From contig DASSBA010000081.1 in assembly GCA_035699205.1 (NCBI GenBank), positions 2,273 to 66,272 of the forward strand: a stretch of 64,000 bases of DNA, in the 5' to 3' direction. Position numbers and translations under genes: made by a program. This document shows, piece after piece, positions 2,944 through 49,744 of this stretch. The DNA is from Gemmatimonadales bacterium. Its GTDB lineage: Bacteria > Gemmatimonadota > Gemmatimonadetes > Gemmatimonadales > GWC2-71-9. Under the pieces are notes generated by a model that was given only the letters and a program-made list of their open reading frames with translations, searched no databases and was not told where the DNA came from. The first letter of the stretch is position 1, and every line of letters begins with the position of its first letter.

Positions 2944-3959
2944 TCAAGCGCGACTTCCTCGCCCTCGAGGATTGGAGCCGGGACGAGGTGAATGAGCTGC
3001 TCCGTCTGGCCGCGCGGGTCAAGCGCGGCGAGGTCTCCGGCGGTCTCGAGAAGAAGGTGCTGGCGATGGTCTTCATGGACCCGAGCCTGCGCACCCGCAC
3101 CAGCTTCGAGACCGCGATGTTCCTGCACGGCGGGCACGGCGTGGTGCTCGAGCCGGGGAGGGGAAGCTGGCCGCTCGAGACCGAGCCGGGCGCCGTCATG
3201 GACGGCGATACCGTCGAGCACATCATCGACGCCGCCCGCGTCCTCGGCCGCTACGCCGACGCGCTGGGAGTCCGGAGCTTCCCCCGGGGCACCGACTGGG
3301 CGGTGGCGCGTGAGGACTCCGTCCTGCGGAATTTCGTGAAGTACTGCGAGAAACCCGTCATCAACTTCGAGAGCGCGCGGCGCCACCCGTGCCAGGCGCT
3401 TGCGGACGCGATGACCCTGCGCGAGAAGCTCGGGCAGACCGAGGGAAAGCGCTTCGTGCTCACCTGGGCCTGGCACCCGAAGGCGCTGCCCACCGCCGTC
3501 CCGGCCAGTGCCGCGCTCGCGGCGGCTGGGCTGGGGATGGAAATCGTCATCGCGCGACCGGCGGGCTACGAGCTGGACCCGGAGGACACCGCGCTGATCC
3601 GCCGCCTCGCCCAGCAGTCCGGCGGCGAGTTCGTGCACATCATCGACGACCCCGACGAGGCCACGGTCGGCGCGGACGCGGTCTACGTGAAGTCCTGGGG
3701 CTCGGTGAAGCTGTTCGGCCAGCCCCGGGAGGAGGCCGCCCTGCGCGCGGGGCTTCGCGACTGGCGCCTCACCCCCGGCCGACTCCGCTCCACCCGCGGC
3801 GGCAAGGGAATCGTCATGCACTGCCTGCCGGTGCGGCGGAATGTCGAGATCGACGACACGGTGCTCGACGGCCCGAATTCCGTCGTGGTCGACCAGGCGG
3901 AAAATCGGCTGCACGCGCAGCGGGCCTTGTTGTTGGAGCTCATAGGCGGTGAGCGGTGA
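2940..3959 (+). CDS. argF': N-acyl-ornithine carbamoyltransferase-type transcarbamylase (ArgF' type)
   Basis: Has SLRTRTSFE in place of the canonical STRTR context, plus HPCQALAD and HCLPVRRN. GTG 2940 overlaps the argD TGA (GTGA). Confidence 0.8.
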   Translation: MIKRDFLALEDWSRDEVNELLRLAARVKRGEVSGGLEKKVLAMVFMDPSLRTRTSFETAMFLHGGHGVVLEPGRGSWPLETEPGAVMDGDTVEHIIDAARVLGRYADALGVRSFPRGTDWAVAREDSVLRNFVKYCEKPVINFESARRHPCQALADAMTLREKLGQTEGKRFVLTWAWHPKALPTAVPASAALAAAGLGMEIVIARPAGYELDPEDTALIRRLAQQSGGEFVHIIDDPDEATVGADAVYVKSWGSVKLFGQPREEAALRAGLRDWRLTPGRLRSTRGGKGIVMHCLPVRRNVEIDDTVLDGPNSVVVDQAENRLHAQRALLLELIGGER

Positions 3960-8003: not shown

Positions 8004-8366
8004 TGCTGCACCCGGCCGGACCAGGTCCTCAGCGGACCGGCGTCACGCGGACACCCTGGCCGACGGCCCGTGTGCCACGGCCCGTCCGGCTGCTCGGCTT
8101 ACGATAGTGGCGGCGCCGGAGGCGGGCGGACGCTGCTCGCGGCGGGGCCACGGCCGGCCGCGGTATGGCCAGCACGGACCAGTCCCGTCGAGCCGTCCTG
8201 GGCGCGTGTACGGACCGCCGCCTCGCCGCCAGCGCGAGCGCGGTCAGCACGGATTGGGCGATGACTCCGTCGCGGAGTATCAAGCTGGACATTTGCGAGC
8301 CTGTGGGAGACCGGCTAACATACCGGCCCGCGGATAATTCACGGTTAGAAACCGGTTAGTGAGCCC

Positions 8367-11240
8367 ATGGCAGGTCCCACACTCCGTCTGTTCACCCTTG
8401 GCGGCCTCACCCTCGAGCGGGATGGGCAACCGATCGGCGGCATCGGCAACCGAAAGGTGCCGCTGATCCTGCTGGCGCTCCTTGCGGGGCACGGCGCGCA
8501 GGGGATCAGCCGGGACAAGCTGGTGGCCTACCTCTGGCCCGATAGCGACGAGGCGAGGGCCCGCAACAGCCTCAAGCAGGTGCTGTTCGGCCTGCGCCGG
8601 GAGCTGGGCGATTCGCTGCTGATGTCGGCCGGTCCCACCCTCCGCCTCGACCCATCCGCAATCGGATCCGATCTCGCCGACTTCGACGCCGCTCTCATGG
8701 CCGAGGATTTGGCCGCCGCGGCTGAGCTGTACCGCGGTCCCTTTCTGGACGGATTCTTCCTGCCGGGTCGTCTCGAGCTGGAGCGCTGGATCGAGACCGA
8801 TCGTCAGCGGCTCCATCGTGTACACGTGGAGAACCTCGTCCGCCTGGCTCGGCGGGCCGACGCCGAGCACGACCTGGTCCTGGCGGTCCGCTGGTGGCGG
8901 CAGGCCTCCGCCGCCGACCCGTTCAGCGCCGATGCCGCCCTCGGCGCCATGCGTGCGCTGGCCGCGACCGGCGACCGCGCCGGGGCGCTGGAGCACGGCC
9001 GGTCCTACGAGGCCGCCCTCGCCGCCGAGCTGGGGCTCCCGGCCGAGCCCGCGGTCCGAGAGTTCGCCCGATCCCTCCGGATCCCCGACCCGGCGCCGCC
9101 GGTCGCCATCGGGGCACCGCCGGCCGCCGATGCCTTCCACCCGCAGGCGCTAGCCGCGGCAATGGCCGTCTCGACCCCCCTGGCAGTGCCGGCCGGCCGG
9201 GCGCGACCGGTGGCGGCGCGCTGGACCGGCTACCTCCTCCCGCTGATCCTGGTGCTGGCCATCGCCGGCGCCGTGCTGCTGCTGCGGAGCAGCGCGCCGG
9301 ACGCCGTCGCCCCGGGCGCGCCCGCGACGCTCACGGTCCTGCCGTTCGAAGCGGTGGGTGACGCGAGCGGCGATCTCGGACGCGGCCTCGATGCGCTCCT
9401 CTCCTCCGGACTCGACGGCGTGGCGGATATTCGAGCGGTGCCGACCGTCCCGGCGGGTGGCAGGGGCGGGACGCCGGGTGGATTGACCGGCTCGGCGGCC
9501 TCGGAGACGGCCCGGCGCTCCGGCGCCCGGCTCTACGTGGTAGGCCGACTGGTGGCGGATCGGGACAGTCTGCGCGCCACCGCCTCGCTCCACGACCGCG
9601 CCAACGCCGACCGCGAGGTGAGCCGCGCCCAGGCGACGGTCTCACGGGACGAGCTGTTCACCATGGCGGACGAGCTCGTGCGCGGGCTGGTGGCCGACCG
9701 GGTCGGCGGGCCCGGCGAGCGGCTGGCCAGGGCCGCCGCGGTGAGCACCCGGTCGCTGCCGGCGCTCAAGGCCTACCTGGACGGTGAGCAGCGGCTCCGG
9801 CACGACGAGTACGTCGCCGCCGTCGATGCCTTCAACCGCGCCGTCAGGGCCGACAGCGCATTCGGGCTGGCCTATTACCGGCTCAGCGTGGCCGCGGACC
9901 GGGCGGGACGCGACGAGACGTCCCTCTGGGCCGCCCGCCTGGCCAGCCGGTTCAGCGCCGGCCTGTCCGAGCACGACCAGCGCCTGGTGCTGGCCTATCT
10001 CACCGTCCGGAACGGGCGGCTGGACGAGGGCGAGCGGATCTATCGCGGGATCGTCGCGGACTACCCGCAGGACGTCGAGGCCTGGCTCCAGTTGGGCGAT
10101 CTGCTGCTGCACGGCAATCCGTTGCGCGGACGCTCCGCGCTCGAGGCACGCGAGGCCTTCGAACGGGTGCTGGCGCTCGCGCCGGACCAGGGCGACGCGC
10201 TCGTGCCGCTCGCGCGCATCGCCTCGCTCGAAGGGAAGCGCACCGAGGCGGACTCGCTGCTGCGCCGCGCGGAAGCCACCGTGCCCGCGGCCGCCCTCGA
10301 CCTCCGGGCCATCCGTACCTTCGCGCTGAACGACCGTCCCGGCCACGAGCGGGCGACGCGCGATCTCCTGGCCGACCGGTCGATTCTGCCCCGCCGGCTC
10401 GCGTTCGACGTGGCGGTGAAACTCGGCGATCTGGCCGGCTCGGCGCGCTTCGCGGGACTCCTCGTCCGCGCGTCCGCCACCTGCGACGTGCACGCGATGG
10501 GGCGGCGGATGCTGGCGCAGGTCGCGATCGCGCACGGACGGCTCGGTGTGGCGGACGGCGAGCTCGCGCGCGCGGCGCCGTGCGATCCGGGGGCAGCCCT
10601 GGAACACCGCGCGCTTCTGGCCGTGCAGCCGTTCGCGAGCCCGGACACCTCCGACCTCGAGGAGCTCGCGCGCGACCTCGGCGTCGCGGCCGACTCGGTG
10701 CTCGGGCACCCGGCGCGCGAGTACTACGCCGGTCTCGTCGCGATCGGCCTCGGCGATAGCCTGACCGCCGCCGCCGACGCGCGCGCACTCCTTGCCGCAG
10801 GGGATTCGACGGCCACCGGCGACCTGTCCCGCACGTTCGGCCGGAGTCTGCGCGCGCGGGTGCTGTGGCACGCCGGTCGCCCGGCCGAGGCACTGGCGGA
10901 GCTCGAGGCGGCCGGATGGGAGCGCACGGCGCGACTCTCGGTGGCGGAGGCCTCGGACCGCTATCTCCGGGCGGAGCTGCTCCACCGTCTGGGCAGGGAC
11001 GAGGAGGCGATCGGGTGGTATCGGTCCATCGCTCAGCGGGCGTCCTACGAGCTGGTGTATGTGGCGCCGGCCGAGCGCCGGCTCGCGATGATCTACGACG
11101 CCACCGGGGATGAGGCGGCCGCGCGTGAGCACTACCGGCGGTTCATCGACCTGTGGCGGGAGGCGGATCCGGAGCTGCAGCCGGCGGTGGGGGCGGCGGA
11201 GCGGCGGCTGGGGGAGCTGGAGGGGGCGACGGCGGGATGA
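8367..11240 (+). CDS. Membrane-anchored SARP/BTAD-family transcriptional regulator with periplasmic TolB-like and TPR modules
   Basis: N-terminus LRLFTLGGLTLERDG...LVAYLWPDSDEARARNSLKQVLFGLRREL (OmpR-type wHTH plus BTAD). One TM segment (WTGYLLPLILVLAIAGAVLLL). Then a TLTVLPFEAVGD... module and TPR-like repeats. Confidence 0.8.
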   Translation: MAGPTLRLFTLGGLTLERDGQPIGGIGNRKVPLILLALLAGHGAQGISRDKLVAYLWPDSDEARARNSLKQVLFGLRRELGDSLLMSAGPTLRLDPSAIGSDLADFDAALMAEDLAAAAELYRGPFLDGFFLPGRLELERWIETDRQRLHRVHVENLVRLARRADAEHDLVLAVRWWRQASAADPFSADAALGAMRALAATGDRAGALEHGRSYEAALAAELGLPAEPAVREFARSLRIPDPAPPVAIGAPPAADAFHPQALAAAMAVSTPLAVPAGRARPVAARWTGYLLPLILVLAIAGAVLLLRSSAPDAVAPGAPATLTVLPFEAVGDASGDLGRGLDALLSSGLDGVADIRAVPTVPAGGRGGTPGGLTGSAASETARRSGARLYVVGRLVADRDSLRATASLHDRANADREVSRAQATVSRDELFTMADELVRGLVADRVGGPGERLARAAAVSTRSLPALKAYLDGEQRLRHDEYVAAVDAFNRAVRADSAFGLAYYRLSVAADRAGRDETSLWAARLASRFSAGLSEHDQRLVLAYLTVRNGRLDEGERIYRGIVADYPQDVEAWLQLGDLLLHGNPLRGRSALEAREAFERVLALAPDQGDALVPLARIASLEGKRTEADSLLRRAEATVPAAALDLRAIRTFALNDRPGHERATRDLLADRSILPRRLAFDVAVKLGDLAGSARFAGLLVRASATCDVHAMGRRMLAQVAIAHGRLGVADGELARAAPCDPGAALEHRALLAVQPFASPDTSDLEELARDLGVAADSVLGHPAREYYAGLVAIGLGDSLTAAADARALLAAGDSTATGDLSRTFGRSLRARVLWHAGRPAEALAELEAAGWERTARLSVAEASDRYLRAELLHRLGRDEEAIGWYRSIAQRASYELVYVAPAERRLAMIYDATGDEAAAREHYRRFIDLWREADPELQPAVGAAERRLGELEGATAG

Positions 11241-11361: not shown

Positions 11362-12735
11362 TCAGGGCTTCACATTCGTCTTCACTTCCGCGGGAGCATT
11401 GAAGGTCTCGACGTCGCGCCCCACGACGCCGGTGATGCCGGATGCATCGGTGCTGCTCACCGTGATGATCAAACCGCCGGTCTTCGTCACCGACAAGTGG
11501 AACGTCGCATAGCCGGGTTGCAGCGGGCCGCCGGCGGTGGCCGAGGCCGACTTCGTGATTGCCGAAACGTCGTCCGGCCCGGTGTTGTCGCACTCTTTGT
11601 TCCCCGCCAGCGCGGTGTTCTGCCCGTTGTTGTTCGCCCCATGCATGTACACGCAGACGCCATTCACTCCGAGGCCATCGTCGGTCTTGGCTCGGACGAT
11701 TACTTCGTAGGGCATCTTGCGAACGGACATGGTGGCCGGTGGTGCCTTCACATAGCTGAACGTGATGCTCGGCACGGGCTTGTTGGCGAACTCGCTCCTG
11801 AGGCCACCGGCCGAGCCGCCGATGGTCCTGGTGCCGGCGAACAGCGGCTGCGGGGTGAGGAATTTGACCAGCCGCTGCACGAGGACCCGCGCGCCCCAGG
11901 ACTGCGGGATCGAGCTGATCGAGGCATCGCAGACGTAGTCCGCGTCGTGATAGGCCAGCACGCCGAAATCGGACTCGCTGACCATGCTGGTCGGCTCGCT
12001 GCTCGCGAGGCACAGTGCGACGGTGGCCCCGTCGCCGCCGAACGGCACGGAGGGCCGGATTGCCTCCCACTGGTACTCGCTGGTCGAATAGCCACCGATA
12101 TCCGCGCCCGCCAGGGGAATCCCATAGATCAGCGCGCGCTCGGAGAGAACCTGGCTCCAGGGGAGCGCAGTGCCTGGCGCAACGAGATCGTTGGGATCCT
12201 GCGGAGGAGCCACTCCCGATAGCCGCTGGGTTACGCCGACCGTTGTGCGCGACACCACCGGTGTGTTGCCACTGGCCGGGCCGCGAACCTCGTAGGCACC
12301 CGGCACCGCCGGATCAAGCGACGGAGTGAAATCGAGCGCGTCGAAGTTGGACGGGAAGTCGCTCGAGGTGCCTGCCTTGTACATGCACTTGATCAGCTCC
12401 TTCGTCAGCTCGGAGCCGGTGCTGGCGGCCGTGTTCCCGCCCTTGACTGCAGCGGCGATCAGCTCCATGACGTTGAACCCGCTGGCCTGTGCGGCGGCAG
12501 TGTATGGGCTCGCGGTCATCTCGTCGACGAAGCCCCTCGCCTGCTGAGTCGTCGCCGGGTCGGTGAAATAGCCGCTGACGAGCGATGGGAACGCACTGCT
12601 GTTGCAGGCGAGGGTGGGGGCCGGGCGGAACTCCGGCTGTCCGGGAGCAACCGGACCCGAGTCATTCCGGTCCGCGCACGCGATCACCAGCATCCCGACC
12701 GCGATGGGGAGCATGCCAAGAACACGGCGAGCCAT
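11362..12735 (-). CDS. Secreted lipoprotein of unknown function (C-terminal Ig-like beta domain likely)
   Basis: MARRVLGMLPIAVGMLVIAC has a lipobox. AAGGAG lies 9 nt upstream of ATG 12735. No recognisable catalytic motifs. Confidence 0.7.
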   Translation of the reverse strand: MARRVLGMLPIAVGMLVIACADRNDSGPVAPGQPEFRPAPTLACNSSAFPSLVSGYFTDPATTQQARGFVDEMTASPYTAAAQASGFNVMELIAAAVKGGNTAASTGSELTKELIKCMYKAGTSSDFPSNFDALDFTPSLDPAVPGAYEVRGPASGNTPVVSRTTVGVTQRLSGVAPPQDPNDLVAPGTALPWSQVLSERALIYGIPLAGADIGGYSTSEYQWEAIRPSVPFGGDGATVALCLASSEPTSMVSESDFGVLAYHDADYVCDASISSIPQSWGARVLVQRLVKFLTPQPLFAGTRTIGGSAGGLRSEFANKPVPSITFSYVKAPPATMSVRKMPYEVIVRAKTDDGLGVNGVCVYMHGANNNGQNTALAGNKECDNTGPDDVSAITKSASATAGGPLQPGYATFHLSVTKTGGLIITVSSTDASGITGVVGRDVETFNAPAEVKTNVKP

Positions 12736-12807
12736 GGTATGACACTCCTTGATGGTCCTCGGCAAGGAGGACTCCCGAAGGAAACCTGTGGTATGAGAGA
12801 GCAATCA

Positions 12808-12979: not shown

Positions 12980-15610
<2,631 letters not shown>

Positions 15611-16587: not shown

Positions 16588-16674
16588 GAAAGGCGGAAAG
16601 GCGGAAAGGCGGAAAGGGACAAACCCTTCCCTGCGTGTTTCCTTTCTGCCTTTCCGCCTTTCCGCCTTTCCCCC
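16588..16674. repeat. Tandem-unit hairpin element E3 (8-nt unit GGCGGAAA / TTTCCGCC)
   Basis: Arms 16588-16617 and 16641-16670 are complementary at 29/30 positions, each arm about 3.5 tandem units. Sits directly after the stop of the M50-HlyD gene. Confidence 0.85.
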
Positions 16675-18725
16675 TACAGCAGCAGATCCGTCCGCACCCG
16701 CTTCCGGATCCCCCACCAGATGGATCCCCACACGTTCGATTCCCGGATGGTGACGCTCGCCTCCCCAGTCATCCCCGGCCGCCACCGCGCCGGGCCGCCC
16801 ATCCCGATCCGCGCCTCCACCGTCCCCGAGCCGGCCGACGAGAGCTGCGCCACCCCCGTGACCCGCGCGTCCATCGTCCCGCCGTCCGCATGGAACACCA
16901 GCCGCGCCCGCTGTCCGGCGCGCACCCGCGTGGCCCCCGCGCCGGTGAGCGCGATCCGGACCTCCAGCGAATCCGGTTGTCCCAGCTCCATCAGCCCCTG
17001 GCCAAGGCTTACCCACTGGCCCGTGAGCTCCTCCGGCCGCCGGGTCACCACCACCCCGGCGGTCAGCGCCCGGACGGTCAGCGCCTGCTGCTCCACGGTC
17101 ATCCCCTCGAGCCGGGCGGCGTCGGTGGCGCGCTCGGCGGCCAGTCGGGCGACCTCGGACGTCCGCCCGGCGGCGCGCGCCTGCGCCTCCCGGGCCACCA
17201 GCGAATCCACCCGCCGCCCCGCGGCCAGGGCCGCGCGCTCCAGGTCCAGGTCACGCACCTCGACCAGCGGCATGCCCGACTCCACCCGGGTGCCCTCGCG
17301 TACGTACACCCGGGAGACCAGTCCGCTGTCGGGGGCGGTGAGCGGCAACGACAGCGCGGGCGCGACGGCGAACTGCCCGGTCACCGTGATCGGCCGCGGC
17401 ACGAGCGCGCCGAGCACGAGCAGCATCGCCGCCCCCGCGAGCAGCCGGTCGCGGAAGCGGCCGGTGTCGATCCTCGCCCGGAGCTCGCGCCAGCCGGCCG
17501 CGACCGTCTGGGCCGCGCTCCGGACCGCCTGCCGGGTCATCAGCCAGACGGCGATGGCGAAGAGCACGCCGCCGGCGAGGCCGAGCGCGCCGTCGAGCCA
17601 GCCGTACACGGTGCCGGCCACGACCAGCATGATCGAAGTGATATAAACCGCCGCCAGCACGGCGTAGACGATGAAGATCCGCTGTTCCCGCTCGTCGGCC
17701 GGCGGGGCGGGAACCTCGAGTCGGAATACCCGCGTCTTCACCAGCCAGCCGAGGTGCGCGAAGGCACGCTGCCGGAGGTTCGGCACCTCGAGGTAGTCGC
17801 TCAGCGCGAAGTAGCCGTCGAGCGGGATCAGCGGGTTGGCGTTCATGACGACGGTGGTGATCCCGCCGAAGAGCACGGCGGAGAGCGCGATGTGCGAGAC
17901 CAGCGTGTCCGGCTCCGCCGCCCACCAGACGATTGCCGCGAGGCTGGCCGCGACGAGCTGGATCCACGAGCCCGCCGCGGTCACCCAGAGCCGGGCCTTG
18001 AGCTCGGGAAACGTCCACGCATCGTTCACGTTGCAGAAGAATGCCGGCTCGAAGTACAGCAGCATCGCGCCGATCTCGTGCACCTGTCCGCCGAAGTGTT
18101 TGCAGGTATATCCGTGCCCCAGCTCGTGGACCACGATGATGGCCGTGGCCGTGGACCAGAGCACGAACAGCTCCCAGGCGGAGTAGCGGAAGTGATAGAA
18201 GTCGCCGAACGCCGCCATGAGCTCGGGCCATTTGACGGCGACGACGAGCAGGTAGATGGCGAACAGGAACACCGAGGCGACGAGGAAGCCGCGGGTGAAC
18301 ATCCAGCGGATGTAGGGGATGGTGCGGTCCATGAAGTGATCGGGATCGCCGACCGACCAGCGGAGCCGCAGGATATCGCCCTGGAACGGTCCCGTCGCGA
18401 GACGCTGCCGGCGCTGAGCGCGGAGCCGTTCCATCATGAGCACGGAGCGTTCACCCAGCGTGCGCTCGAGCAGCCCCATCGTCTTGAGCTTGTTCGCGAA
18501 CCCCTCGACCGCCGCGGCCGAGACCCGGAGCCCGGCCGCGACCAGCTCCTCGGCGATCTCGGCCGCGCTGCGGGTGCCGTCGAATTGTCGAATGACGTTC
18601 ACTTCCACCGGCCGGAATCGGAAATACTTCCTGGTCGTGGGGTCCTTCAGGATGAAGCTCTGCTCGCCGCGGTAGGTCTGCTCGACGAGCGTCAGGTCGG
18701 CGCGGAGCTTCGGCGCGGTGGTCAC
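16674..18725 (-). CDS. Fusion protein: PqqD/RRE-like N-terminal domain, M50 (site-2 protease) membrane metalloprotease, C-terminal HlyD/MFP-like domain
   Basis: HELGH zinc motif and NANPLIPLDG motif within a multi-TM core. N-terminus FRFRPVEVNVIRQFDGTRSAAEIAEEL...GLLE. C-terminus has lipoyl-like, coiled-coil and barrel MFP pattern. GTG start overlaps the upstream TGA (GTGA). Confidence 0.8.
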   Translation of the reverse strand: MTTAPKLRADLTLVEQTYRGEQSFILKDPTTRKYFRFRPVEVNVIRQFDGTRSAAEIAEELVAAGLRVSAAAVEGFANKLKTMGLLERTLGERSVLMMERLRAQRRQRLATGPFQGDILRLRWSVGDPDHFMDRTIPYIRWMFTRGFLVASVFLFAIYLLVVAVKWPELMAAFGDFYHFRYSAWELFVLWSTATAIIVVHELGHGYTCKHFGGQVHEIGAMLLYFEPAFFCNVNDAWTFPELKARLWVTAAGSWIQLVAASLAAIVWWAAEPDTLVSHIALSAVLFGGITTVVMNANPLIPLDGYFALSDYLEVPNLRQRAFAHLGWLVKTRVFRLEVPAPPADEREQRIFIVYAVLAAVYITSIMLVVAGTVYGWLDGALGLAGGVLFAIAVWLMTRQAVRSAAQTVAAGWRELRARIDTGRFRDRLLAGAAMLLVLGALVPRPITVTGQFAVAPALSLPLTAPDSGLVSRVYVREGTRVESGMPLVEVRDLDLERAALAAGRRVDSLVAREAQARAAGRTSEVARLAAERATDAARLEGMTVEQQALTVRALTAGVVVTRRPEELTGQWVSLGQGLMELGQPDSLEVRIALTGAGATRVRAGQRARLVFHADGGTMDARVTGVAQLSSAGSGTVEARIGMGGPARWRPGMTGEASVTIRESNVWGSIWWGIRKRVRTDLLL

Positions 18726-19699
18726 GGCGTGGCTTTCACCACCTCTTCGCCCGCCGCGATGCCGCTCACCACCTCGACCCGGTCGCCGTCGAGGTCCGCG
18801 CCGAGGACGACGGCGCGCAGCGCGGTGCGGCCGTTCTCCTGCACGAGGGCAAAGCCGTCCCGGGCCACCGCCGCGCGAGGAATCGCCAGCACCCGCCGCC
18901 GCTGCGCGCCAAGCTGGACGGTGACGCTGCTGCCGGGCGTGAGCGACGAGCCGGAAGCGAGCTGCAGCACCAGTTCGCGCGTCCCGCTGGCCGGATCGAG
19001 CACGGGCGAGGCGCGCACCACGCGCGCGCCCGCGCTCGCCCCGCCGGCGGTGAGCACCCGGGCCTCGGCGCCCACGCGAAGGCCGGCCGCCGCGCCCTCG
19101 GGCACGTGGACCGTGGCCAGGACCGGCGCCAGCGCGGTAACGCGGAACAGCGAGTCGCCGGCGTTGACCAGCCGCTGGACCCGGGCCATCCGCGCCGTGA
19201 CCACCCCGGCGAACGGCGCGACGATCCGGGTGAGGTCGTAGTCCCGCTGCGCCTGGCGGAGCGCCAGCTCGGCGTCGCGGTGCTCGAACTCCACCTGCTC
19301 GCTGTCCGCCCGCGTGACCACCCCCGCGGTGGCCAGGGCGCGCTGGCGCTCGACCCGCTGCGACGCGTTGGCCGACCGCTCGCGCGCCTGCGCGAGGGCG
19401 ATCTCCTGATCGGTGCTCTCGAGCCGGGCGAGCGGCTGGCCCGCGGACACCCGGCTGCCCATGTCCACCAGGATGCTCTCGACGATGCCCGACGACCGCG
19501 CCACGACCGCCGCGTCGTGTTCCACGTACAGTTGCGACGGCAGGGTGAGCGGCCGGTCCACCGTGGTGCTCTCGGCGGTCGCCACCGCGCCGGAAGGAGT
19601 GGCTGCGAGGGATGCGGAGGCGGCGGTCTGGACCGGAGGCGCGACCTCCCCGCCGCAGGCCGCCAGGAGGAGCGTCACGGGAACGACGAGGCGGGTCAT
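18722..19699 (-). CDS. HlyD-family periplasmic adaptor (membrane fusion protein) lipoprotein
   Basis: MTRLVVPVTLLLAACGG has a lipobox. MFP pattern (LARLESTDQEIALAQA..., IVAPFAGVVTA). ATGA overlap with the upstream gene. Confidence 0.85.
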   Translation of the reverse strand: MTRLVVPVTLLLAACGGEVAPPVQTAASASLAATPSGAVATAESTTVDRPLTLPSQLYVEHDAAVVARSSGIVESILVDMGSRVSAGQPLARLESTDQEIALAQARERSANASQRVERQRALATAGVVTRADSEQVEFEHRDAELALRQAQRDYDLTRIVAPFAGVVTARMARVQRLVNAGDSLFRVTALAPVLATVHVPEGAAAGLRVGAEARVLTAGGASAGARVVRASPVLDPASGTRELVLQLASGSSLTPGSSVTVQLGAQRRRVLAIPRAAVARDGFALVQENGRTALRAVVLGADLDGDRVEVVSGIAAGEEVVKATP

Positions 19700-21630
19700 G
19701 ACCAGATCCTCCACCAGAGAAGCCGGGCCCAGCGCGATGGCGCCCGGAGGAGCCGGGTGGCCGCCGATGCGGGATCGGTGAGCACGCGGACGTACGCGGC
19801 CATGCTCGGCCTGAGGACTCCGTCCGGGTTGGCGACGACGGCGCGGACCGGATAGCGCACCCCGGCGCCCGCCGTGTCCGCCGCCGCCACCGGCGCGATC
19901 GAACGCACCCGCCCCGTAAAGGTCCGCTGCGGGACCGCGTCGACCCGGAGCCGCACCTCCTGCCCTGGCCGGACTCGGCCGATGTCCTGCTGCGCCACCC
20001 CGAACTCGAGCTCGAGGGAATCGGTGCGGCCGATCGTCAGGAGCAGGTCGCCCTCTTCGAGCGAGCTCCCGACCCGGTCCTCCACGTGCGGCGTGAGGAC
20101 GACGCCGCTGACCGGGGCGCGCAGCGTGGTGAGGTCGACCTCCTCGTCCAGCAGCGCGACCTCGCGCCGGAGCGCGTCGCCGCGGATCCGCTGCAGCCGC
20201 TCCTCCGAGGGATCGCCCCGGCTGGCGGCCAGCGCGGCGAGCCGGTCGGCCGAGGCCGCCTCGGCGGCCGTGGCCTCCCGGTCCGCGCGCAGACTGGTGG
20301 CGCGGAGGTAGGCCACCGGCGTCCCCCGCGACACCAGGCTCCCCTCGCTCACCGGGAGTCGCTCGACCACGCCCGCCACGAGCGCGCGCACCGGGGCGTA
20401 GGCCGTGGCGCGGAAGCTCGCCGCCTGGCCCGGGACGCGGAACGGCCAGCGAACCAGGAGCAGGAGCCCCAGCGCGACCGCGACGGCCGCCGCGTAGATC
20501 TGGATTCGCCGCTTGGGCATTGCACGGAGCGCCTCGCGCCTGGCCGCCAGCGCGCCGAGCGCGTCCACCATCGGCACCTGGTGATACAGCTGCGCGTTCC
20601 GCAGCGCCACCGCGGTCTGGTTGGCCAGGATCGCCGCTACCTCGCGCTGCGTGGGCGTGGCGAAATCCACGGTGGCCGACTCGAACACCAGGACCCCGAG
20701 CACCCCCTCCTCGTCCTTGAGCGGCAGGTACAAGCCGCTCTCCACGCCGTCGGTTTCCAGGTCCTGGCCGAAGATGGTCACGAACATCCGTTCGGCGTCG
20801 GAGCCCGGGTAGACGCGCTCGCTCAGATACAGCGGCTCGCCCCGCCCGGCGGCCCACTCCGCCCGGGCCACCAGGTCCTGCAGCTTGGGATCCTTGGGGT
20901 CGACGGTCTCCTCACCCGCCACGGCCCGAACGTCGCAGCGCCCCTTCTCGTAGAGCGCGACGGCGGCCCGGTCGAACGGGAGCGCGCGGGAGGCGAGGTT
21001 GACGACTGACTGGAGCACGCGGTCCAGGTCGAGCGTCGCCGTGATCTCGCGGCTGATGTCCAGCAGCAGCGCGAGGTCCCCGGCGCGCTTCTCGGCGCCG
21101 TGAAGCTGTGCGTTCCGGAGAGCCAGGGCGCCGGTGGCGGCCAGCCCCTCGAGCAGCTCGCGGTCATGCTCCTCGAACACGCCGGAGCCGGTGAGCTTAT
21201 TGGTGACCTGGATGGCGCCGACCGTGTTGCCGTTGACCACCATGGCCGTGGCCATGACGTTCACCGCGATGGTCTCACTCGGGTGGTCCAGGTTCGCGTC
21301 GAACCGTGGATCGGCCGTTGCCTGGGTGACGATGGTCGTCTTCTGCTGCTGCGCCACGTCGCCCACGAACCCGGTCCCGACCGGCACTTCGGCACCGACC
21401 AGCTGATCCCCGCGTCCGCCGATCGCGATCCGGCACCGCAACACGTCACCGTCGGCGATCCAGATCGAGCCTCCCTCCGCGCCGAGCGCGGCGAGGACGC
21501 GGTGAAACACCTTCGGCAGCAGCTCGTCGAAGTCGAGCGACGCGCCGAACTCCAGGCCGATCGAGTGGAGCAGCCGGAGACGCTCGACTTCTTCGCGCAG
21601 CTCGTCGGTCGAGGTGGTGGGAGCGCTCAT
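19696..21630 (-). CDS. Tandem-GAF cytoplasmic sensor fused via a TM segment to a HlyD/MFP-like periplasmic domain
   Basis: Two GAF-like blocks (each ending ...ALRNAQLH/LY). TM segment IYAAAVAVALGLLLLV. Then an MFP pattern (LRAPVSGVVLT..., RLRVDAVPQRTFTGRV). Confidence 0.75.
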   Translation of the reverse strand: MSAPTTSTDELREEVERLRLLHSIGLEFGASLDFDELLPKVFHRVLAALGAEGGSIWIADGDVLRCRIAIGGRGDQLVGAEVPVGTGFVGDVAQQQKTTIVTQATADPRFDANLDHPSETIAVNVMATAMVVNGNTVGAIQVTNKLTGSGVFEEHDRELLEGLAATGALALRNAQLHGAEKRAGDLALLLDISREITATLDLDRVLQSVVNLASRALPFDRAAVALYEKGRCDVRAVAGEETVDPKDPKLQDLVARAEWAAGRGEPLYLSERVYPGSDAERMFVTIFGQDLETDGVESGLYLPLKDEEGVLGVLVFESATVDFATPTQREVAAILANQTAVALRNAQLYHQVPMVDALGALAARREALRAMPKRRIQIYAAAVAVALGLLLLVRWPFRVPGQAASFRATAYAPVRALVAGVVERLPVSEGSLVSRGTPVAYLRATSLRADREATAAEAASADRLAALAASRGDPSEERLQRIRGDALRREVALLDEEVDLTTLRAPVSGVVLTPHVEDRVGSSLEEGDLLLTIGRTDSLELEFGVAQQDIGRVRPGQEVRLRVDAVPQRTFTGRVRSIAPVAAADTAGAGVRYPVRAVVANPDGVLRPSMAAYVRVLTDPASAATRLLRAPSRWARLLWWRIWS

Positions 21631-21739: not shown

Positions 21740-21871
21740 CTAGTTGAGCCGCATCGGCGCGATTTTCTCTTCGAGCTCTTCGACGCCCAGCTCGACGTCC
21801 TTGGACGGAACCGGCTTCTTCGGCTGCTGTTCGGGAGTCTTGGTCCGGGACTGCTCGTCGTGCTTGCTCAT
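21740..21871 (-). CDS. Small ORF A, 43 aa, candidate precursor peptide
   Basis: MSKHDEQSRTKTPEQQPKKPVPSKDVELGVEELEEKIAPMRLN. Shares the ELxVEELExxIAP block with ORFs B and C. Confidence 0.55.
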   Translation of the reverse strand: MSKHDEQSRTKTPEQQPKKPVPSKDVELGVEELEEKIAPMRLN

Positions 21872-21924
21872 GATAGCGCTCGTTTCGTCGGAGGTCGAGG
21901 GGTCAGGGGGCGCCGGATCCTGAT

Positions 21925-22077
21925 CTACTTGTTCCAGAGCTTGCCCGGCGCGATGCGGGCCTCGAGCTCCTCGACCGAGAACTCCACCGCGTCGGCGTCC
22001 TTGCCGGTGGCGTTACGGATGGTGGCCTTCTGCTCGGGGGTCAGCTCGATCCGGAGATGGTCCTTGGCGTTCGACAT
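21925..22077 (-). CDS. Small ORF B, 50 aa, candidate precursor peptide
   Basis: MSNAKDHLRIELTPEQKATIRNATGKDADAVEFSVEELEARIAPGKLWNK. AGGAG lies 6 nt upstream of the ATG. Full-length paralog of ORF C at 31328-31477. Confidence 0.65.
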   Translation of the reverse strand: MSNAKDHLRIELTPEQKATIRNATGKDADAVEFSVEELEARIAPGKLWNK

Positions 22078-22142: not shown

Positions 22143-22175
22143 AAGCTAGCTGGCCTCCGTGAAAAGTCCGTGAAT
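22143..22175 (-). promoter_or_regulatory. Heptamer direct-repeat (11-nt period) activator-type promoter of small ORFs B/A
   Basis: Minus strand reads ATTCACG-GACT-TTTCACG-GAGGCCAGC-TAGCTT. The same architecture occurs upstream of ORF C. Confidence 0.6.
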
Positions 22176-22196
22176 GCGTACTTGCCCTTCCGGGAA

Positions 22197-24485
22197 TTGA
22201 CGGTACGTTCTACCTGTCCTCCCCAAGGACCGCCCCTGCACGCCTTCGCCCTCCGCCTGCTCGGAGCACCCGCCCTCGTTGCCCCCGAGGGGGGTCCGGC
22301 CGCGCCCGTCCCAGGCGCCAAGCCTATGGCGCTGCTCGCCTTCATGGCTCTCGAGCCGCGGCCCCACAGCCGCGAGTCGCTGGCCGGCCTGCTGTGGGGG
22401 GAGTCCCCCGAGTCCGAGGCTCGGGCCTCGCTGCGGCAGGCGCTCAAGCAGCTCCGCGAGGTGCTGGGCGACCGGCTTCGCGCCGACCGGACACTGGTCG
22501 AGCTCGCGGCTCCGCTCGCCTGCGACGTCCTCGAGTTCCGCCAGGCGGCGGAAAGCGAGCCGGCCCGGGCGGCCGGCTTCGAAGTCCCGGCCTTCCTGGA
22601 GGGCTTCTCGGTCCGCCACGCGCCGCTGTTCGACGAATGGGTGGCCGCCACCCGGGTCGCACTTCTCCGTCAGTTTCACCAGGTGCTCGGCCGGCTGGCG
22701 CGCGACGCGATGGGCCAGTGGCGCTGGCGTGACGCGGTCGAGCTGGCCGACCGGTGGCTGGCCAACGATCCGGTTTCCGACGAAGCGGCGCAACTCGCGG
22801 TGGAGGCCCGCTATCTCTCGGGCAATCGAGGCGCGGCGCTCGCCCGGTTCGGCGAGTATCGGGCGCTGCTCGCGCGCGAGATGGGCTGCGAGCCGAGCCG
22901 GGCGCTCCAGGCCTTGGTGCGCCGCGTGGAGGCCGACCGGGGCGGAGCCGAACCGCGGCCGATCACCGACGAATGGTACGTGCACGCCCCCGCCTTCGAG
23001 GCGAGCCTGGTGGGGCGCGAGGCGCAGTGGAATTCGCTGACCGGCGCCTGGAAGCGCGCGGCCCGCGGCCACGCCGGCATCGTGCTCGTCGAAGGCGAGT
23101 CTGGCGTGGGCAAGTCGCGGCTGGCGGACGAGTTCCTGCGCTGGGCCGTGGCCGAAGGCGCCACCGTGCTGCGCGGGCGAAGCCACGACGGCAGCCTCGG
23201 CATCCCCTACGAGCCGGTGGTCGAAGTGCTGCGCGGCGCGCTCGACGCGCCTGGCCTGGCCGCGACCTCCGCGGAGTGGCTCGTGGAGGCCGGCCGCCTC
23301 CTGCCGGAGCTTCGGGAGCGCTTCCCCGGCCTTCCCGCCGGAAGCGAGCCGGATGCGTCCGAGGGTTGGCGGCTCTCCGAGGGCGTGGCCCAGGTCCTGG
23401 CCGCCATCGCGGCCGAGCGTCCGCTCGTCGTTCTGATCGACGACCTCCAGTGGTGCGACGAGGATAGCTGCAATCTGCTTCGCTTCCTCAGCCGGCGCCT
23501 CGAGCGGTCACCGGTGCTGTGGCTCGGGCTCCTGACCCTCGGCGAGGTCGAGCGCGACGCGCCGGCCGCCCGGCTCTGCCGGGTGCTCCGCGCCAAGGCG
23601 CATGCGGAGGTCGTGTCCCTCGGCCCGCTGAGCGAGGAGGAGGTGTGGCAGATGGTGCGCGAGATGGGGCACGTCAGTGCGCCCACGGGCGGCCGCCGCT
23701 TCGCCGGCCGCCTTTTCGGCATCACGGCCGGCAATCCGTTCTACATCATCGAGCTGCTGAAGACCATGTTCGCGCAGGGACTGCTCGCGATGGAGCAGAA
23801 CACCGGGGAGTGGACGGTGTCGCCGGAGGTGGTCGGCGCCGGATGCGAGCTGCCGGTCTCCCAGACGGTGCAGGCCGCCATCGCCGAGCGGGTCGAGCGG
23901 CTGCCCGACGAGCTCCGCGACGTGCTGATCACCCTGGCGGTGAGCGGCGTGGGGTGCCGCCCGGACGTGCTGTCCCACGTCCACGGAATCTCGCGCCTGC
24001 ACGCCGCGGCCGACGGGGACGCCCTGGTACACCGGCGTCTGGCGGTCGAGGAGGCGGGCACCTACCGGTGCGCCCATCCGGTCATCGCGCACCTGGTGCG
24101 TGATGGGCTCACCGCCTCCCGCCGGCAGGAGGTGCACCGGAGTCTGGCGCTCGCGCTGGGGCTCGTGCTGCGGCCCGAGGAGGCACCTTCCGCCGCCGGC
24201 GAGTTGGCCCGGCACGCCGACCGGGGCGGCGAGCCCGGCCTGGCATATCGATACGCGCTGCTCGCCGCCGAGGGAGCGGTGTCGCGCTACGCGTACACGG
24301 AAGCGCTGTCCTGGCTCGACCTGGCGGCCACATCCGCGCGCGGCGCCTCCGAGAGCGAGGTCGTGGACCAGAGGACCGCGGACGTACTGGAGAGGGCGGG
24401 GTGGCGCGAGGCGCCGCGCGGGACGCTGGTGCCGGTGACCCGCGAGATCGTCACCGAGGATCTGGATCTGCGCGTCCGCGGATAA
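22197..24485 (+). CDS. SARP/AfsR-like regulator: wHTH-BTAD, P-loop ATPase, C-terminal helical repeats
   Basis: Motifs FALRLLGAPALV and SLAGLLWGESPESEARASLRQALKQLR, with Walker A GESGVGKSRL. Start uncertain: the track start GTG 22110 would put the ORF-B promoter inside the CDS, so TTG 22197 is chosen. Confidence 0.75.
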   Translation: MTVRSTCPPQGPPLHAFALRLLGAPALVAPEGGPAAPVPGAKPMALLAFMALEPRPHSRESLAGLLWGESPESEARASLRQALKQLREVLGDRLRADRTLVELAAPLACDVLEFRQAAESEPARAAGFEVPAFLEGFSVRHAPLFDEWVAATRVALLRQFHQVLGRLARDAMGQWRWRDAVELADRWLANDPVSDEAAQLAVEARYLSGNRGAALARFGEYRALLAREMGCEPSRALQALVRRVEADRGGAEPRPITDEWYVHAPAFEASLVGREAQWNSLTGAWKRAARGHAGIVLVEGESGVGKSRLADEFLRWAVAEGATVLRGRSHDGSLGIPYEPVVEVLRGALDAPGLAATSAEWLVEAGRLLPELRERFPGLPAGSEPDASEGWRLSEGVAQVLAAIAAERPLVVLIDDLQWCDEDSCNLLRFLSRRLERSPVLWLGLLTLGEVERDAPAARLCRVLRAKAHAEVVSLGPLSEEEVWQMVREMGHVSAPTGGRRFAGRLFGITAGNPFYIIELLKTMFAQGLLAMEQNTGEWTVSPEVVGAGCELPVSQTVQAAIAERVERLPDELRDVLITLAVSGVGCRPDVLSHVHGISRLHAAADGDALVHRRLAVEEAGTYRCAHPVIAHLVRDGLTASRRQEVHRSLALALGLVLRPEEAPSAAGELARHADRGGEPGLAYRYALLAAEGAVSRYAYTEALSWLDLAATSARGASESEVVDQRTADVLERAGWREAPRGTLVPVTREIVTEDLDLRVRG

Positions 24486-31204: not shown

Positions 31205-31263
31205 ACCCCAGCCTACACTGGCGGACCGAAGATTCGGTGAAGCGCGAATGAAACCGCCGAAAT

Positions 31264-31306
31264 GGAGCGCGCCCTCCCGCCGGTTCCGGGCGGGAAGGCG
31301 CGCTCC
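31264..31306 (-). terminator. Strong stem-loop immediately after small ORF C
   Basis: Arms GGAGCGCGCCCTCCCGCC / GGCGGGAAGGCGCGCTCC form an 18-bp stem. The single imperfection is a G-U pair on the minus-strand RNA. Followed on the minus strand by ATTTCGGCGGTTTCATT. Confidence 0.65.
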
Positions 31307-31327
31307 AACCTGGTGCGACGGAGAGCC

Positions 31328-31477
31328 TTACTTCGGCTTGGCCGTCATCGGCGCGATCCGCTCCTCGAGCTCCTCGACGCCGAGCTCGATTGCCCGGGCG
31401 TCCTTCCCCGTGGCGGCCTTGACCTGGGCCTTCTGCTCTTCGGTCAGCTCGATGCGGATGTGATTCTGGTCGGACAT
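31328..31477 (-). CDS. Small ORF C, 49 aa, paralog of ORFs A/B
   Basis: MSDQNHIRIELTEEQKAQVKAATGKDARAIELGVEELEERIAPMTAKPK. AGGAG lies 6 nt upstream of the ATG. Corresponds to the C-terminal part of track ORF 31328..31759. Confidence 0.65.
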   Translation of the reverse strand: MSDQNHIRIELTEEQKAQVKAATGKDARAIELGVEELEERIAPMTAKPK

Positions 31478-31520: not shown

Positions 31521-31553
31521 AGTCTACGGCGCCTGCGTGAATTCAGGGTGAAT
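31521..31553 (-). promoter_or_regulatory. Heptamer direct-repeat promoter of small ORF C
   Basis: Minus strand reads ATTCACC-CTGA-ATTCACG-CAGGCGCCG-TAGACT, with the same spacing as the ORF-B promoter. Confidence 0.6.
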
Positions 31554-31584
31554 CTGCCAGCGCCGACCGTGATTTTCCGCGGGA

Positions 31585-47374: not shown

Positions 47375-49744
47375 TCAGCGAAGCGAATGGGCCGGCGCCC
47401 CGCCGTGGTGCTCGAACACCACTACCCCGGTCACCCGCGCTTCGACCGACTCCCAGCGCGGCGTAGGTGCCGGCAGCCGGCCTGTCCACTTTGCAAGTTC
47501 CGCCGCATCGACCTCCGCCAACCGCCGCACCAGCTCCGCTTCTCCCGCGGTGTGACCCCCCGCCACGAATGCGAGGGCGCGCTCCAGCCGCGTGAGCGCC
47601 GGCACGTCCCGCCGCCGCGCCGCCTCGCGCACGGATGCCTGCAGCCGCGCGGCCAGCCGGCGGGCGCTCGGCTCGGGCTCGGCGGCCGTCCATCGGCGCG
47701 CGCCCGCCACCGCGAGCCGTGCCCGGATCGGCGCCGTGAGTCTGTCGAGCGCCCGCCCGAGCACCGCTGCCGGCGGCGCGCAGCGTGCTCCGCTCCGCGC
47801 TGCCTCGACCAGCCGCCGGGTCACCGTTTCTTCATCCTCGAACCACCGCCCCGCGAAGTCCAGCCAGCCCACTGCCGCCGCGATCCGCTCGACCGCGCCA
47901 TCCCGCCGCCCCAGCAGTTCGAACCCGGCGAGCACGCCGCGGCTGCCACTGCACACGAGCGCCGTGCCCGGTGCCGACGGGCCCGCGACCATCCGGTCCG
48001 CCAGTGCCGACCGCCAGCGCCACAGGCGGACGCCGTCGGGGCCGAGCCCGGCGCGCCCGGGGAGCGCGGCCTTCCGCGCGAGCCGCTCTCCGAGTCGCAG
48101 GGCGGCGTCGAGCGAGGGTGGGGGAAGGAAGCGCACCACCGCGATGCGGTCGTTCGCCGAGCCCAGCCGAACCGTCCGCCCCTCACGCTGCTCCAGCCGC
48201 ATCGGTGTCCATGGCAGGTCGTAGTGCACCACGCGCTCCGCGCGCCGGAGATCGAGTCCTTCGGCCGCCACATCGGTGACAACCAGACATCGCGGCGCGG
48301 CGTGCGACACCTCGGCAGGTGGCTGCTCCCGGAACCAGTCCAGCACCGCCGACCTCGGAAGCGGTGCGCGGCCGATCCCGGCACGCTCGCCGGTGCACCA
48401 GGCGACGGGTGGAGGACCGAGCCGGTCGCGCAGGTGACGCACCGTCTCCCGTCTGGCCGTGAAGACCAGCGTCGGCACGCCGTCGGCCAGGACGGCGCGC
48501 AGGCGCTCGAGCTTCGGGTCCGCTCCGGTGGCGCCCGCCGTGGCGCCCGCGATCACCGCGTCCAGCGTCGCGAGGTCTTCCAGCGCGAGCTCGACCTCGC
48601 TGCCGCCCTGGCGGACGGCAACCAGTTCCCACAGTACCAGCTGGTCATCCAGCTCGCCGGCGAACGTCCGGAGCTCCGCCCGCGAGAGCGCGCGCCCCGC
48701 CTGCCGCGCGTCCCGGGCGTGGAGCAGCAGCCCGCGATACCGCCTGAGCGCGGCCGCCAGCGCGGCGGGGCTCGACCCCGCGGCACGCTGCAGCACGCTC
48801 CGCACGAGCGCGGCGGTCGGCGGGTGGCGCGAGAGGCGAAGACCCGCGAGCAGCTCGAGCGCGCCCGCCACGGCCAGACCCTCCGCCTCGCTGGCCGGGC
48901 TGGTGCCGAAAGCCCGGATGGGACGCGGGCCGGCCTCTGCGGTGTCCTCGATGACGAGGGCCCCGAGCGCCGACGTGCCCGCGCCCGACGCCAGTGACGC
49001 CCTGAGCGACACCACGCCGTCCGGCAGCAGCGCGTCATCCCGCACGCCGAGCAGGAGCTGGTGGGCCAGGTCGTCCAGCCGGTTGACTAGCGGCGTCGCG
49101 CTCAGGAGCAGGACCGGCCGTCCGATCAGCCACGGCGCCACGTGGGCGTATCGCCTGGTGCGTGGATGGCGGAAGTGGTGGCTCTCGTCGATGACGACGA
49201 GCCCGGCGGTGCCGGCCGGCAGCCGGCCGCGGCTGGCCTGTTCATGACTCCCCACCTCGACCGCAATGCCCAACCGTGCCGCGACCAGACGCCATTGCGT
49301 CGCGAGCGTGGCCGGAACGAGGCATGCAGTCGGGCGTCGGCGCTGCAGCGCGGCGGCCACGGCGAGCGCCACGTACGTCTTCCCGCTACCCACCGGTTCC
49401 GCCAGCAGAGCGCCGCCGAACCGCTCGATGGCCGCCAGCGCGCGACGGTAGCTCCGCGCCTGGCCGGCCAGCAGCCATGCCGGCGGAGGGACCACCCGTT
49501 CGGCCGGGAGCAGGCTCGCGGCCAGCGCCCGCGCGACGTGGCCGGCCGCTGCCGCCGGCCCGGCCGTGAGTCCCGTGCGGAGCGGGTCGGCGACCGCGAC
49601 CAGCGCCTCAGCGACGATCCGCGGCGCCCAGCACGGCGCGGTCGCGGGTCGAGAGGGCAAGGTGTCGGGCCACGGTCTCATCCAGGGCCTCCTGAACGTC
49701 CTCCCCTCGCCGGCCTGCCCGAGCGAGCGCGGAGAGCTGGGCAT
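47375..49744 (-). CDS. SNF2/DEAD-like superfamily 2 helicase with an unknown C-terminal domain of about 300 aa
   Basis: Motif I EPVGSGKT, II VIDESHH, III LSATP, VI QREGRTVR. Start uncertain (ATG 49744 or ATG 49681). Overlaps the upstream MTase gene by 74-137 nt. Confidence 0.8.
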   Translation of the reverse strand: MPSSPRSLGQAGEGRTFRRPWMRPWPDTLPSRPATAPCWAPRIVAEALVAVADPLRTGLTAGPAAAAGHVARALAASLLPAERVVPPPAWLLAGQARSYRRALAAIERFGGALLAEPVGSGKTYVALAVAAALQRRRPTACLVPATLATQWRLVAARLGIAVEVGSHEQASRGRLPAGTAGLVVIDESHHFRHPRTRRYAHVAPWLIGRPVLLLSATPLVNRLDDLAHQLLLGVRDDALLPDGVVSLRASLASGAGTSALGALVIEDTAEAGPRPIRAFGTSPASEAEGLAVAGALELLAGLRLSRHPPTAALVRSVLQRAAGSSPAALAAALRRYRGLLLHARDARQAGRALSRAELRTFAGELDDQLVLWELVAVRQGGSEVELALEDLATLDAVIAGATAGATGADPKLERLRAVLADGVPTLVFTARRETVRHLRDRLGPPPVAWCTGERAGIGRAPLPRSAVLDWFREQPPAEVSHAAPRCLVVTDVAAEGLDLRRAERVVHYDLPWTPMRLEQREGRTVRLGSANDRIAVVRFLPPPSLDAALRLGERLARKAALPGRAGLGPDGVRLWRWRSALADRMVAGPSAPGTALVCSGSRGVLAGFELLGRRDGAVERIAAAVGWLDFAGRWFEDEETVTRRLVEAARSGARCAPPAAVLGRALDRLTAPIRARLAVAGARRWTAAEPEPSARRLAARLQASVREAARRRDVPALTRLERALAFVAGGHTAGEAELVRRLAEVDAAELAKWTGRLPAPTPRWESVEARVTGVVVFEHHGGAPAHSLR

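Follow-up and report, generated by a model that had tools for sequence, protein, structure and literature searches.

The DNA analysed here is a stretch of 64,000 nt (the window; 72% GC) from contig DASSBA010000081.1 of a Gemmatimonadales bacterium, and our subject is a pair of promoters in it that precede genes for short, paralogous peptides. Peptide B (50 aa; 21925..22077, minus strand) contains the conserved segment ...VEELEARIAP followed by the variable tail GKLWNK. Peptide B2 (43 aa; 21740..21871, minus strand), a third, shorter paralogue, is encoded 53 nt after B, has no promoter motif of its own and is probably co-transcribed with B. Divergently adjacent to these genes lies the gene for an AfsR-like regulator (22236..24485, plus strand), an arrangement found in nearly all of the 79 related loci described below. 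Peptide C (49 aa; 31328..31477, minus strand), a paralogue of B, is encoded 9 kb away, between a cox-like cluster and hemN; in sister genomes peptide C is at most 4-5 kb from the same regulator.

Read on the minus strand, the region upstream of peptide B is ATTCACG-GACT-TTTCACG-GAGGCCAGC-TAGCTT (22175..22143) and that upstream of peptide C is ATTCACC-CTGA-ATTCACG-CAGGCGCCG-TAGACT (31553..31521). At the B promoter, the first heptamer (R1, ATTCACG, 22169..22175) is predicted to lie at about -39..-33 and the second (R2, TTTCACG, 22158..22164), 11 nt from R1, at about -28..-22; the predicted -10 element TAGCTT (22143..22148), chosen by conservation, lies 9 nt past R2 and would place the transcription start near 22136. 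At the C promoter, the sequence matches are R1 ATTCACC (31547..31553) and R2 ATTCACG (31536..31542), with a putative -10 element TAGACT at 31521..31526 and a predicted start near 31514 (all minus strand). A consensus scan found no canonical sigma-70 -35/-10 pair at either peptide promoter, in agreement with the earlier proposal that the heptamers replace the -35 element.

Both 33-nt strings had been reported in the initial annotation, a reading of the same DNA by a model; we find them at these positions, and they are the only ones of their kind in the window. The pattern WTTCACS-N4-WTTCACS-N9-TAGNNT has exactly two matches there and none in 100 dinucleotide-preserving shuffles, and the 18-nt repeat part by itself likewise has two matches in the window and none in 100 such shuffles. 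Single TTCACS hexamers are frequent (84 in the window, more than in shuffles, probably because of Phe-Thr codon pairs or codon usage), so that only the tandem arrangement carries information. Beyond the motif and the ribosome-binding site, the upstream regions of B and C cannot be aligned, and the shared element is therefore not simply the result of a recent duplication. Global alignment with MAFFT missed even the motifs because the 5' leader lengths differ, and an anchored comparison was used instead. A relaxed search of the window for a wider regulon (at most three mismatches) gave only a coding-region match at 18014, and the motif was not found at the PHO4 phosphate-transporter gene or anywhere else in the window. 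Matches with two mismatches at 18734, 28080 and 61734 lack the downstream A..TT element and were rejected as promoters. No RNA family near either peptide locus was found in Rfam.

The same motif recurs far beyond this contig. Through the peptide family, 79 related loci were retrieved from a species-level genome collection (821 kb, searched on both strands), all of them from metagenome-assembled genomes of Gemmatimonadales. TTCACS-N4-wTTCACS, with at most two mismatches and within 160 nt upstream, precedes 110 of the 145 peptide genes in these loci and the window. Among the peptide genes that stand first in their cluster, 82 of 86 carry TTCACG-N5-TTCACG (at most one mismatch, within 200 nt upstream), and an own tandem copy is present at 27 of the 58 later genes. 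Two of the four first-in-cluster misses follow a peptide gene that the filter overlooked, one (L057) has a gap of 6 nt rather than 5, and one (L049) is genuine. Conversely, the 821 kb contain 107 exact tandem sites, 97 of which sit within 200 nt upstream of a recognised peptide gene, and the remaining 10 look like the same promoter type; 20 dinucleotide shuffles of the 821 kb had 0 or 1 tandem site. These numbers bear out the view that the geometry, which recurs in 79 other Gemmatimonadales loci, is not due to chance.

A frequency matrix of 109 distinct promoters gives the family consensus wTTCACG-N4-wTTCACG-N10-AnaTT. In the two sites of the window and throughout the 109 aligned promoters, one TTCACG copy follows the other at exactly 11 nt, and both are invariant or nearly so: each position of the upstream copy is kept in 98-109 of the 109 promoters and each position of the downstream copy in 108-109. 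Position 1 of the heptamer is A in 68 promoters, T in 38 and G in 2. Between the hexamers lie five loosely T-rich bases, and the second hexamer is followed by ten variable bases and then by the predicted -10 element, with A(-11) in 104/109, any base, a, T(-8) in 90/109, T(-7) in 109/109, and then g. The conserved islands are narrow and the flanks are unconserved. The distance to the conserved nAnaTT hexamer is 9 nt from the heptamer end and 20 nt from the first TTCACG. Of the consensus first put forward, the heptamer tandem stands and the TAGmyT element does not, as the T of 'TAG' occurs in only 28 of 109 promoters; the conserved -10 core is therefore A(-11), T(-8), T(-7) within nAnaTT. If the invariant T is placed at -7, the TTCACG hexamers would fall at -38..-33 and -27..-22 and the 22-bp box would be centred at about -29.5.

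The description of the sites as two heptamers holds for R1 and R2 but is incomplete, as many sites include a third one, found 22 bp further upstream at B and 21 bp at C. At the B promoter this distal heptamer (R3, ATTCCCG, 22191..22197, minus strand) is exactly 22 bp upstream of R1 and lies within the spacer of the regulator's predicted promoter; its position reads ATTCACG in most orthologous divergent regions. At the C promoter the corresponding heptamer is AATCACG (31568..31574, minus strand), 21 bp upstream of R1, and the distance is 22 bp in orthologous C-type promoters. Across the family, a third heptamer at -22 is present in 42% of divergent promoters, in 32% of the 'other' group, which includes the C-type promoters without a divergent gene, and in none of the promoters directly after another peptide gene. 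Four loci (L043, L063, L069 and L073) have two full TTCACG-N5-TTCACG-N9/10-nAnnTT modules in series, about 80-100 nt apart, before one peptide gene; such series may represent promoters stacked one behind the other, or what is left after the loss of a peptide gene.

A scan of metagenomes for the bare DNA motif was used only qualitatively, the matches listed being dominated by chance in low-GC DNA. Among the matches listed, about 20 of about 38 from high-GC DNA precede family peptides, including a more distant peptide clade (MSDSKETDIVRIDLT...QELEARIAP), and a SARP-like regulator (for Streptomyces antibiotic regulatory protein) adjoins the motif wherever the contig is long enough.

The regulator encoded beside peptide B consists of a winged helix-turn-helix (wHTH), a BTAD domain, an AAA_16/STAND ATPase domain and a C-terminal region. 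Its BTAD domain scores 45.6 bits against PF03704, compared with a cut-off of 22.1 bits, and AAA_16 also passes its cut-off, which makes the protein a 'large' SARP, as AfsR is. The match to Trans_reg_C (21.1 bits) falls below the cut-off of 26.2 bits, but many orthologues do carry PF00486. The best sequence matches in the PDB are AfsR (8hvr) and EmbR. An AlphaFold2 model of residues 1-265, built with 44 homologues (pLDDT 89.5), superposes on the DNA-binding and BTA domains of AfsR and EmbR with E values of 1e-10 to 5e-9; AfsR in transcription-initiation complexes (8k60, 8hvr) and EmbR were the only fold matches with E<=1e-3, at TM-scores of 0.62-0.66 over about 255 columns. According to this model, the regulator has an N-terminal OmpR-type winged helix and the SARP fold. 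In 68 cassette-linked orthologues, among proteins down to about 45% identity, the helix predicted to recognise the DNA, ARASLRQALK[HQ]LR, hardly varies, and at the level of sequence this near-invariance appears to parallel that of TTCACG. SARPs were historically defined by actinomycete origin and by control of antibiotic biosynthesis, neither of which applies to the protein at 22236-24485. The SARP label that it had been given is thus apt for fold and architecture, but the host is not an actinomycete and the protein is a distant homologue only: judged by its domains, it is SARP-like in architecture and not a Streptomyces antibiotic regulator.

The region between the peptides and this regulator also contains what is predicted to be the regulator's own promoter, of sigma-70 type (22182..22209, plus strand), with TTGCCC at 22182-22187, a 16-nt spacer and TACGTT at 22204-22209. 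The element cTTGCC-N16-TAsGTT is conserved, with a spacer of exactly 16 nt in 47 of 60 divergent regions. Read in the sense of the regulator, these regions run CGTGAA-N5-CGTGAA, 6-8 nt, cTTGCC, 16 nt including CGTGAAT, and TAsGTT, followed after about 15-20 nt by a purine-rich, Shine-Dalgarno-like stretch and then GTG or ATG. Many regulator orthologues have in-frame stops upstream of the regulator promoter, and independently called orthologues start at an M or V that aligns exactly with CTG 22236 of the window. The clade of the window (the window itself, L001-L004, L012 and L013) has CTG at this position and the other orthologues GTG or ATG; L013 has no canonical start alternative at all. In the window, a Shine-Dalgarno-like AAGGA (22225-22229) lies 6 nt upstream of the CTG. 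Taken together, the in-frame stops, the aligned starts of the orthologues and the CTG shared within the clade indicate that the regulator most likely starts at CTG 22236, and a rare CTG start may keep the regulator level low.

The initial annotation had argued that the coding sequence begins after 22175 and not at 22110, which agrees with the orthologue-aligned start; GTG 22110 would place both promoters inside the coding sequence and is contradicted by the in-frame stops in many orthologues. It had correctly described two BTAD regulators, one of them divergently adjacent to the peptides, but its start at about 22197 fails: TTG 22197 lies inside the spacer of TTGCCC-N16-TACGTT, and L001 has no TTG there.

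The second BTAD regulator (8367..11240, plus strand) lies outside the conserved cassette of genes and consists of wHTH, BTAD, a transmembrane segment and TPR; its match to Trans_reg_C is weak. With one transmembrane segment and an extracytoplasmic TPR domain it is membrane-anchored in a ToxR-like topology, and in its outer domain it is similar to the receptor Ser/Thr kinase encoded nearby (12980-15610). Its recognition helix, ARNSLKQVLFGLRR, differs from the cassette consensus at several positions. Synteny and recognition-helix conservation suggest that it is less likely to be the binder than the regulator at 22236. A single ATTCACGG stands at 8337-8344, 23 nt before the ATG of the gene; it is not tandem and is not interpretable.

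Similar arrangements are known from actinomycetes. The small SARPs ActII-ORF4, DnrI and RedD act at TCGAG-type repeats, have no ATPase domain and regulate operons for antibiotic biosynthesis rather than genes of short peptides. Their sites nevertheless resemble those described here: direct repeats spaced by 11 or 22 bp lie on the same face of the helix, the 3' one ends about 8 bp before the -10, and the target genes are clustered with the regulator (PMC10936776). The earlier assignment of the peptide promoters to a SARP-type geometry is sound in this respect, since their geometry equals the published rule for SARP targets, which asks for a spacing of 11 or 22 bp between direct repeats and of 8 bp between the 3' repeat and the -10 (PMC10936776).

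The promoter of afsS in Streptomyces coelicolor, the target of AfsR (cryo-EM structures 8hvr and 8k60), has a poor -35 element, TTCAGC, at -38..-33, a 20-bp spacer and an AfsR box at -40..-19 centred at -29.5 (PMC10936776, PMC11301090, bioRxiv 10.1101/2023.09.04.556155). The peptide promoters likewise have two 11-bp direct repeats with a TTCA core. In the register predicted here, the upstream repeat occupies the place of the -35, 20 bp separate it from the -10, and the box is centred at about -29.5. With the -10 so placed, they would match afsS at single-base register and in 5 of the 6 bases of the upstream hexamer. In both systems a 'large' SARP (wHTH-BTAD plus STAND ATPase) is encoded beside a small-ORF target, with a Ser/Thr kinase in the neighbourhood (PMC10936776, PMC11301090). 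Unlike in Streptomyces, however, the host belongs to the Gemmatimonadota and not the Actinomycetota, and the regulator is only about 25% identical to AfsR, with T88 and R92 replaced. The targets are leader-plus-cationic-tail peptides of 43-55 aa that are linked to M50/HlyD genes and unrelated to AfsS. In a further difference from afsS, a third repeat at -22 bp is embedded in the regulator's own predicted promoter.

Given a motif that is conserved, fixed in spacing and associated with peptide genes, and a syntenic regulator with the SARP fold, we consider it likely that the paired TTCACG heptamers are the operator of the divergent AfsR-like regulator, which would activate the peptide promoters in the manner of a SARP. 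From these observations we infer the identity of the binder, activation rather than repression, the positions of the -10 elements and starts, and autoregulation. By analogy with AfsR at afsS, two regulator protomers would sit side by side on one face of the DNA, one per 11-bp repeat. Bound at about -38..-33 and -27..-22, the two would bring in RNA polymerase with the housekeeping sigma factor, and the bound regulator would compensate for the missing -35 at a promoter that has a usable nAnaTT -10 and no -35 at the normal distance of 17 bp. In this way the regulator would switch on B/B2 and C, and in many genomes each peptide gene separately. The third heptamer, 22 bp upstream, probably adds cooperative binding, and its place in the spacer of the regulator promoter suggests, by inference only, possible negative autoregulation.

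Several points weigh against this reading. The base-contacting residues T88 and R92 of AfsR are replaced in the regulator by Q and Q/H, and conservation of these contacts thus fails to account for the TTCA core that the two systems share. Response regulators of the PhoP/PhoB type typically also use a TTCAY core phased at 11 bp (PMC2275107), and the motif alone therefore does not name its binder. Another wHTH-BTAD protein (8367) is encoded in the window, and many more are probably present in these genomes. The -10 and the register are assigned from conservation alone, the exclusive association of motif and peptide was measured in DNA enriched for the peptide gene, and the proposed CTG start codon is unusual.

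One alternative, which we regard as unlikely, is that the operator is real but bound by another winged-helix protein, of the OmpR/PhoB type or another BTAD protein such as 8367, while the adjacent regulator acts elsewhere or indirectly. In PHO boxes, the 11-nt unit G(G/T)TCAYYYR(G/C)G, which has a TTCAY core, is repeated directly in tandem near the -35 or in its place (PMC2275107). AfsR and PhoP are reported to bind overlapping sites in Streptomyces (PMC10936776), and the 8367 protein, with its weak Trans_reg_C match and BTAD, has a broadly similar helix. The G at position 1 of the unit is essential for PhoP (PMC2275107), but that position is A or T in 106 of the 109 sites here. No receiver-domain OmpR-type regulator (Response_reg plus Trans_reg_C) is present in the window or in the conserved cassette, although such regulators may be encoded elsewhere in the genome. 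Phosphate genes show no association with the motif, which occurs only at the genes of one peptide family and is missing at the PHO4 gene and elsewhere in the window. Finally, synteny in nearly every locus holds for the divergent regulator and not for 8367, and the recognition helix of the former is nearly invariant.

The repeats might instead be bound by the adjacent regulator as a repressor, occluding a promoter that RNA polymerase could use unaided. Overlap with the -35 region is also a classical repressor position, and the third heptamer in the spacer of the regulator promoter looks repressive. This explanation seems quite improbable, as there is no -35-like hexamer 16-18 bp from the -10, and the only TTGACA-like element, TTCACG itself, is 20 bp away, as in the activator-dependent afsS promoter (PMC11301090). 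The T at -12 is unconserved, which fits a weak promoter in need of help, and the SARP-fold proteins that have been characterised on promoters are activators (PMC10936776).

Highly conserved hexamers can also mark the promoters of dedicated regulons read by alternative sigma factors, for example of the extracytoplasmic function type, and TTCACG could in principle be a tandem-duplicated -35-type element that needs no activator. We think this very improbable: the hexamers are 9 and 20 nt from A..TT, neither of which fits the 16-17 bp or so that separate the -35 and -10 of a sigma promoter; the two copies show equal conservation and keep strictly to an 11-bp phase, and a third is found at 22 bp; the cassette contains neither a sigma nor an anti-sigma gene; and the downstream element resembles the -10 (TAsGTT) of the regulator's sigma-70-like promoter. 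That the similarity is due to chance, or is a non-functional relic inherited by the paralogues B and C from their duplication, is effectively refuted by the comparative data, since none is expected by chance in shuffles and the motif is intact where the flanks are unalignable and is kept in more than 100 promoters and 79 genomes, whose regulators can be as little as about 45% identical.

The peptides share an invariant core, ...T.EQ...K...E..V.ELE..IAP, followed by a tail of 2-18 residues, and lengths across the family are 43-55 aa. The tails are hypervariable (137 distinct tails in 145 peptides), rich in K, R and P and cationic, with no Cys and almost no acidic residues. Pfam and NCBIfam searches with the three window peptides gave only sub-threshold DUF1192 noise, and the family is unnamed. 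No modification enzymes were found in the cassette. An invariant leader with hypervariable tails would be unlike typical precursors of ribosomally synthesized and post-translationally modified peptides (RiPPs) and, to judge from the sequences, more like pheromone precursors.

Both peptide loci are followed by hairpins. Two come after B2 (z -3.3). Peptide C, which looks monocistronic, is followed by a GC-rich hairpin of 19 bp with perfect pairing and a U-rich tail (31240-31330, minus strand; z -4.9); the simple terminator scan missed this hairpin because its T-run is interrupted. The predicted hairpins at the two loci suggest that the peptide transcripts are short and highly expressed and that some transcription continues into the export genes. 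Directly before B2, a sigma-70-like TCGACC-17-TATCAT (21870-21898, minus strand) has a -10 that overlaps the B2 ATG, so it is probably conserved as coding or ribosome-binding sequence and not as a promoter.

Downstream of the peptides, the order from the regulator and the divergent peptide or peptides through genes for GAF-HlyD, HlyD and M50-HlyD proteins to a kinase is kept in nearly all of the 79 loci. In the window (all minus strand), the first cassette gene downstream of the peptides encodes a GAF-GAF-HlyD protein (19696..21630), followed by an HlyD-family adaptor (18722..19780, start approximate) and a fusion of Peptidase_M50, an HExxH intramembrane metalloprotease, with HlyD (16674..18725; Pfam HlyD and Peptidase_M50, and synteny). 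The last gene of the conserved cassette (12980..15610) encodes a receptor-type Ser/Thr kinase that has a single transmembrane segment and a TPR domain on its extracytoplasmic side. Domain scans found no recognisable biosynthetic enzymes in the cassette. The best NCBIfam match of the M50-HlyD protein is daptide_HExxH, at 198 bits and below the cut-off of 300 bits, and its N terminus has a weak PqqD/RRE-like match (SCM_PqqD_rel, E 0.003). These are hints that the protein may recognise and cut the conserved peptide leader, and it is a candidate leader peptidase and exporter. We found no description of the cassette in the literature on daptides, M50 and HlyD proteins and Gemmatimonadota RiPPs.

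A bolder proposal, which we put forward tentatively and consider more doubtful than probable, is that the cassette is a self-contained, quorum-sensing-like peptide-signalling circuit specific to Gemmatimonadales. The M50-HlyD protease would cut the cationic tails off the leader and the HlyD and GAF-HlyD proteins would export them; the tails would then be sensed by the extracytoplasmic TPR domain of the kinase or by the C-terminal sensor region of the regulator, and by way of the AfsR-like regulator the signal would act back on all promoters with TTCACG repeats. If true, such a circuit would extend the AfsK-AfsR-afsS logic and SARP 'sigma adaptation' beyond actinomycetes and would provide the first cis-regulatory code for the little-studied Gemmatimonadota.

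The promoter grammar and the regulator architecture are already known from actinomycetes, and no new mechanism is revealed; the novelty lies in the phylum, in the target and in how deeply the promoters are conserved. SARP activators and their repeat promoters have been treated as an actinomycete speciality, and promoters of the afsS kind have not so far been described outside that group. The same grammar is now found in more than 100 promoters of uncultured Gemmatimonadales, where it offers a concrete, putative pair of regulator and operator in a phylum whose transcriptional regulation is almost unknown. In addition, the regulator gene model is corrected, and the search pattern finds a widespread, previously undescribed family of small peptides together with its M50/HlyD export cassette.

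Some further observations concern other parts of the loci. In L097, a full motif (about 3715-3746) lies between the cassette Ser/Thr kinase gene and a homologue of a secreted lipoprotein gene of the window (11362-12804, minus strand), and the window gene has no such motif upstream; the L097 motif is either a lineage-specific extra regulon member or due to chance. Among the low-GC metagenome matches, contigs L082, L087, L091, L095, L106 and L109 (as well as L135, L141, L155, L183, L190 and L193) share a repeat-rich element with many copies of AATTCACGG and terminal inverted repeats (TAGGGACCAACC...GGTTGGTCCCTA), which looks like a eukaryotic transposon that matches the pattern by coincidence and is unrelated to the peptide promoters. 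Within the window, an Eco57I-type N6-methylase/restriction fusion (1011 aa) adjoins an SNF2/helicase-like protein (789 aa) at 47375-52643 on the minus strand, a possible defence island unrelated to the promoters.

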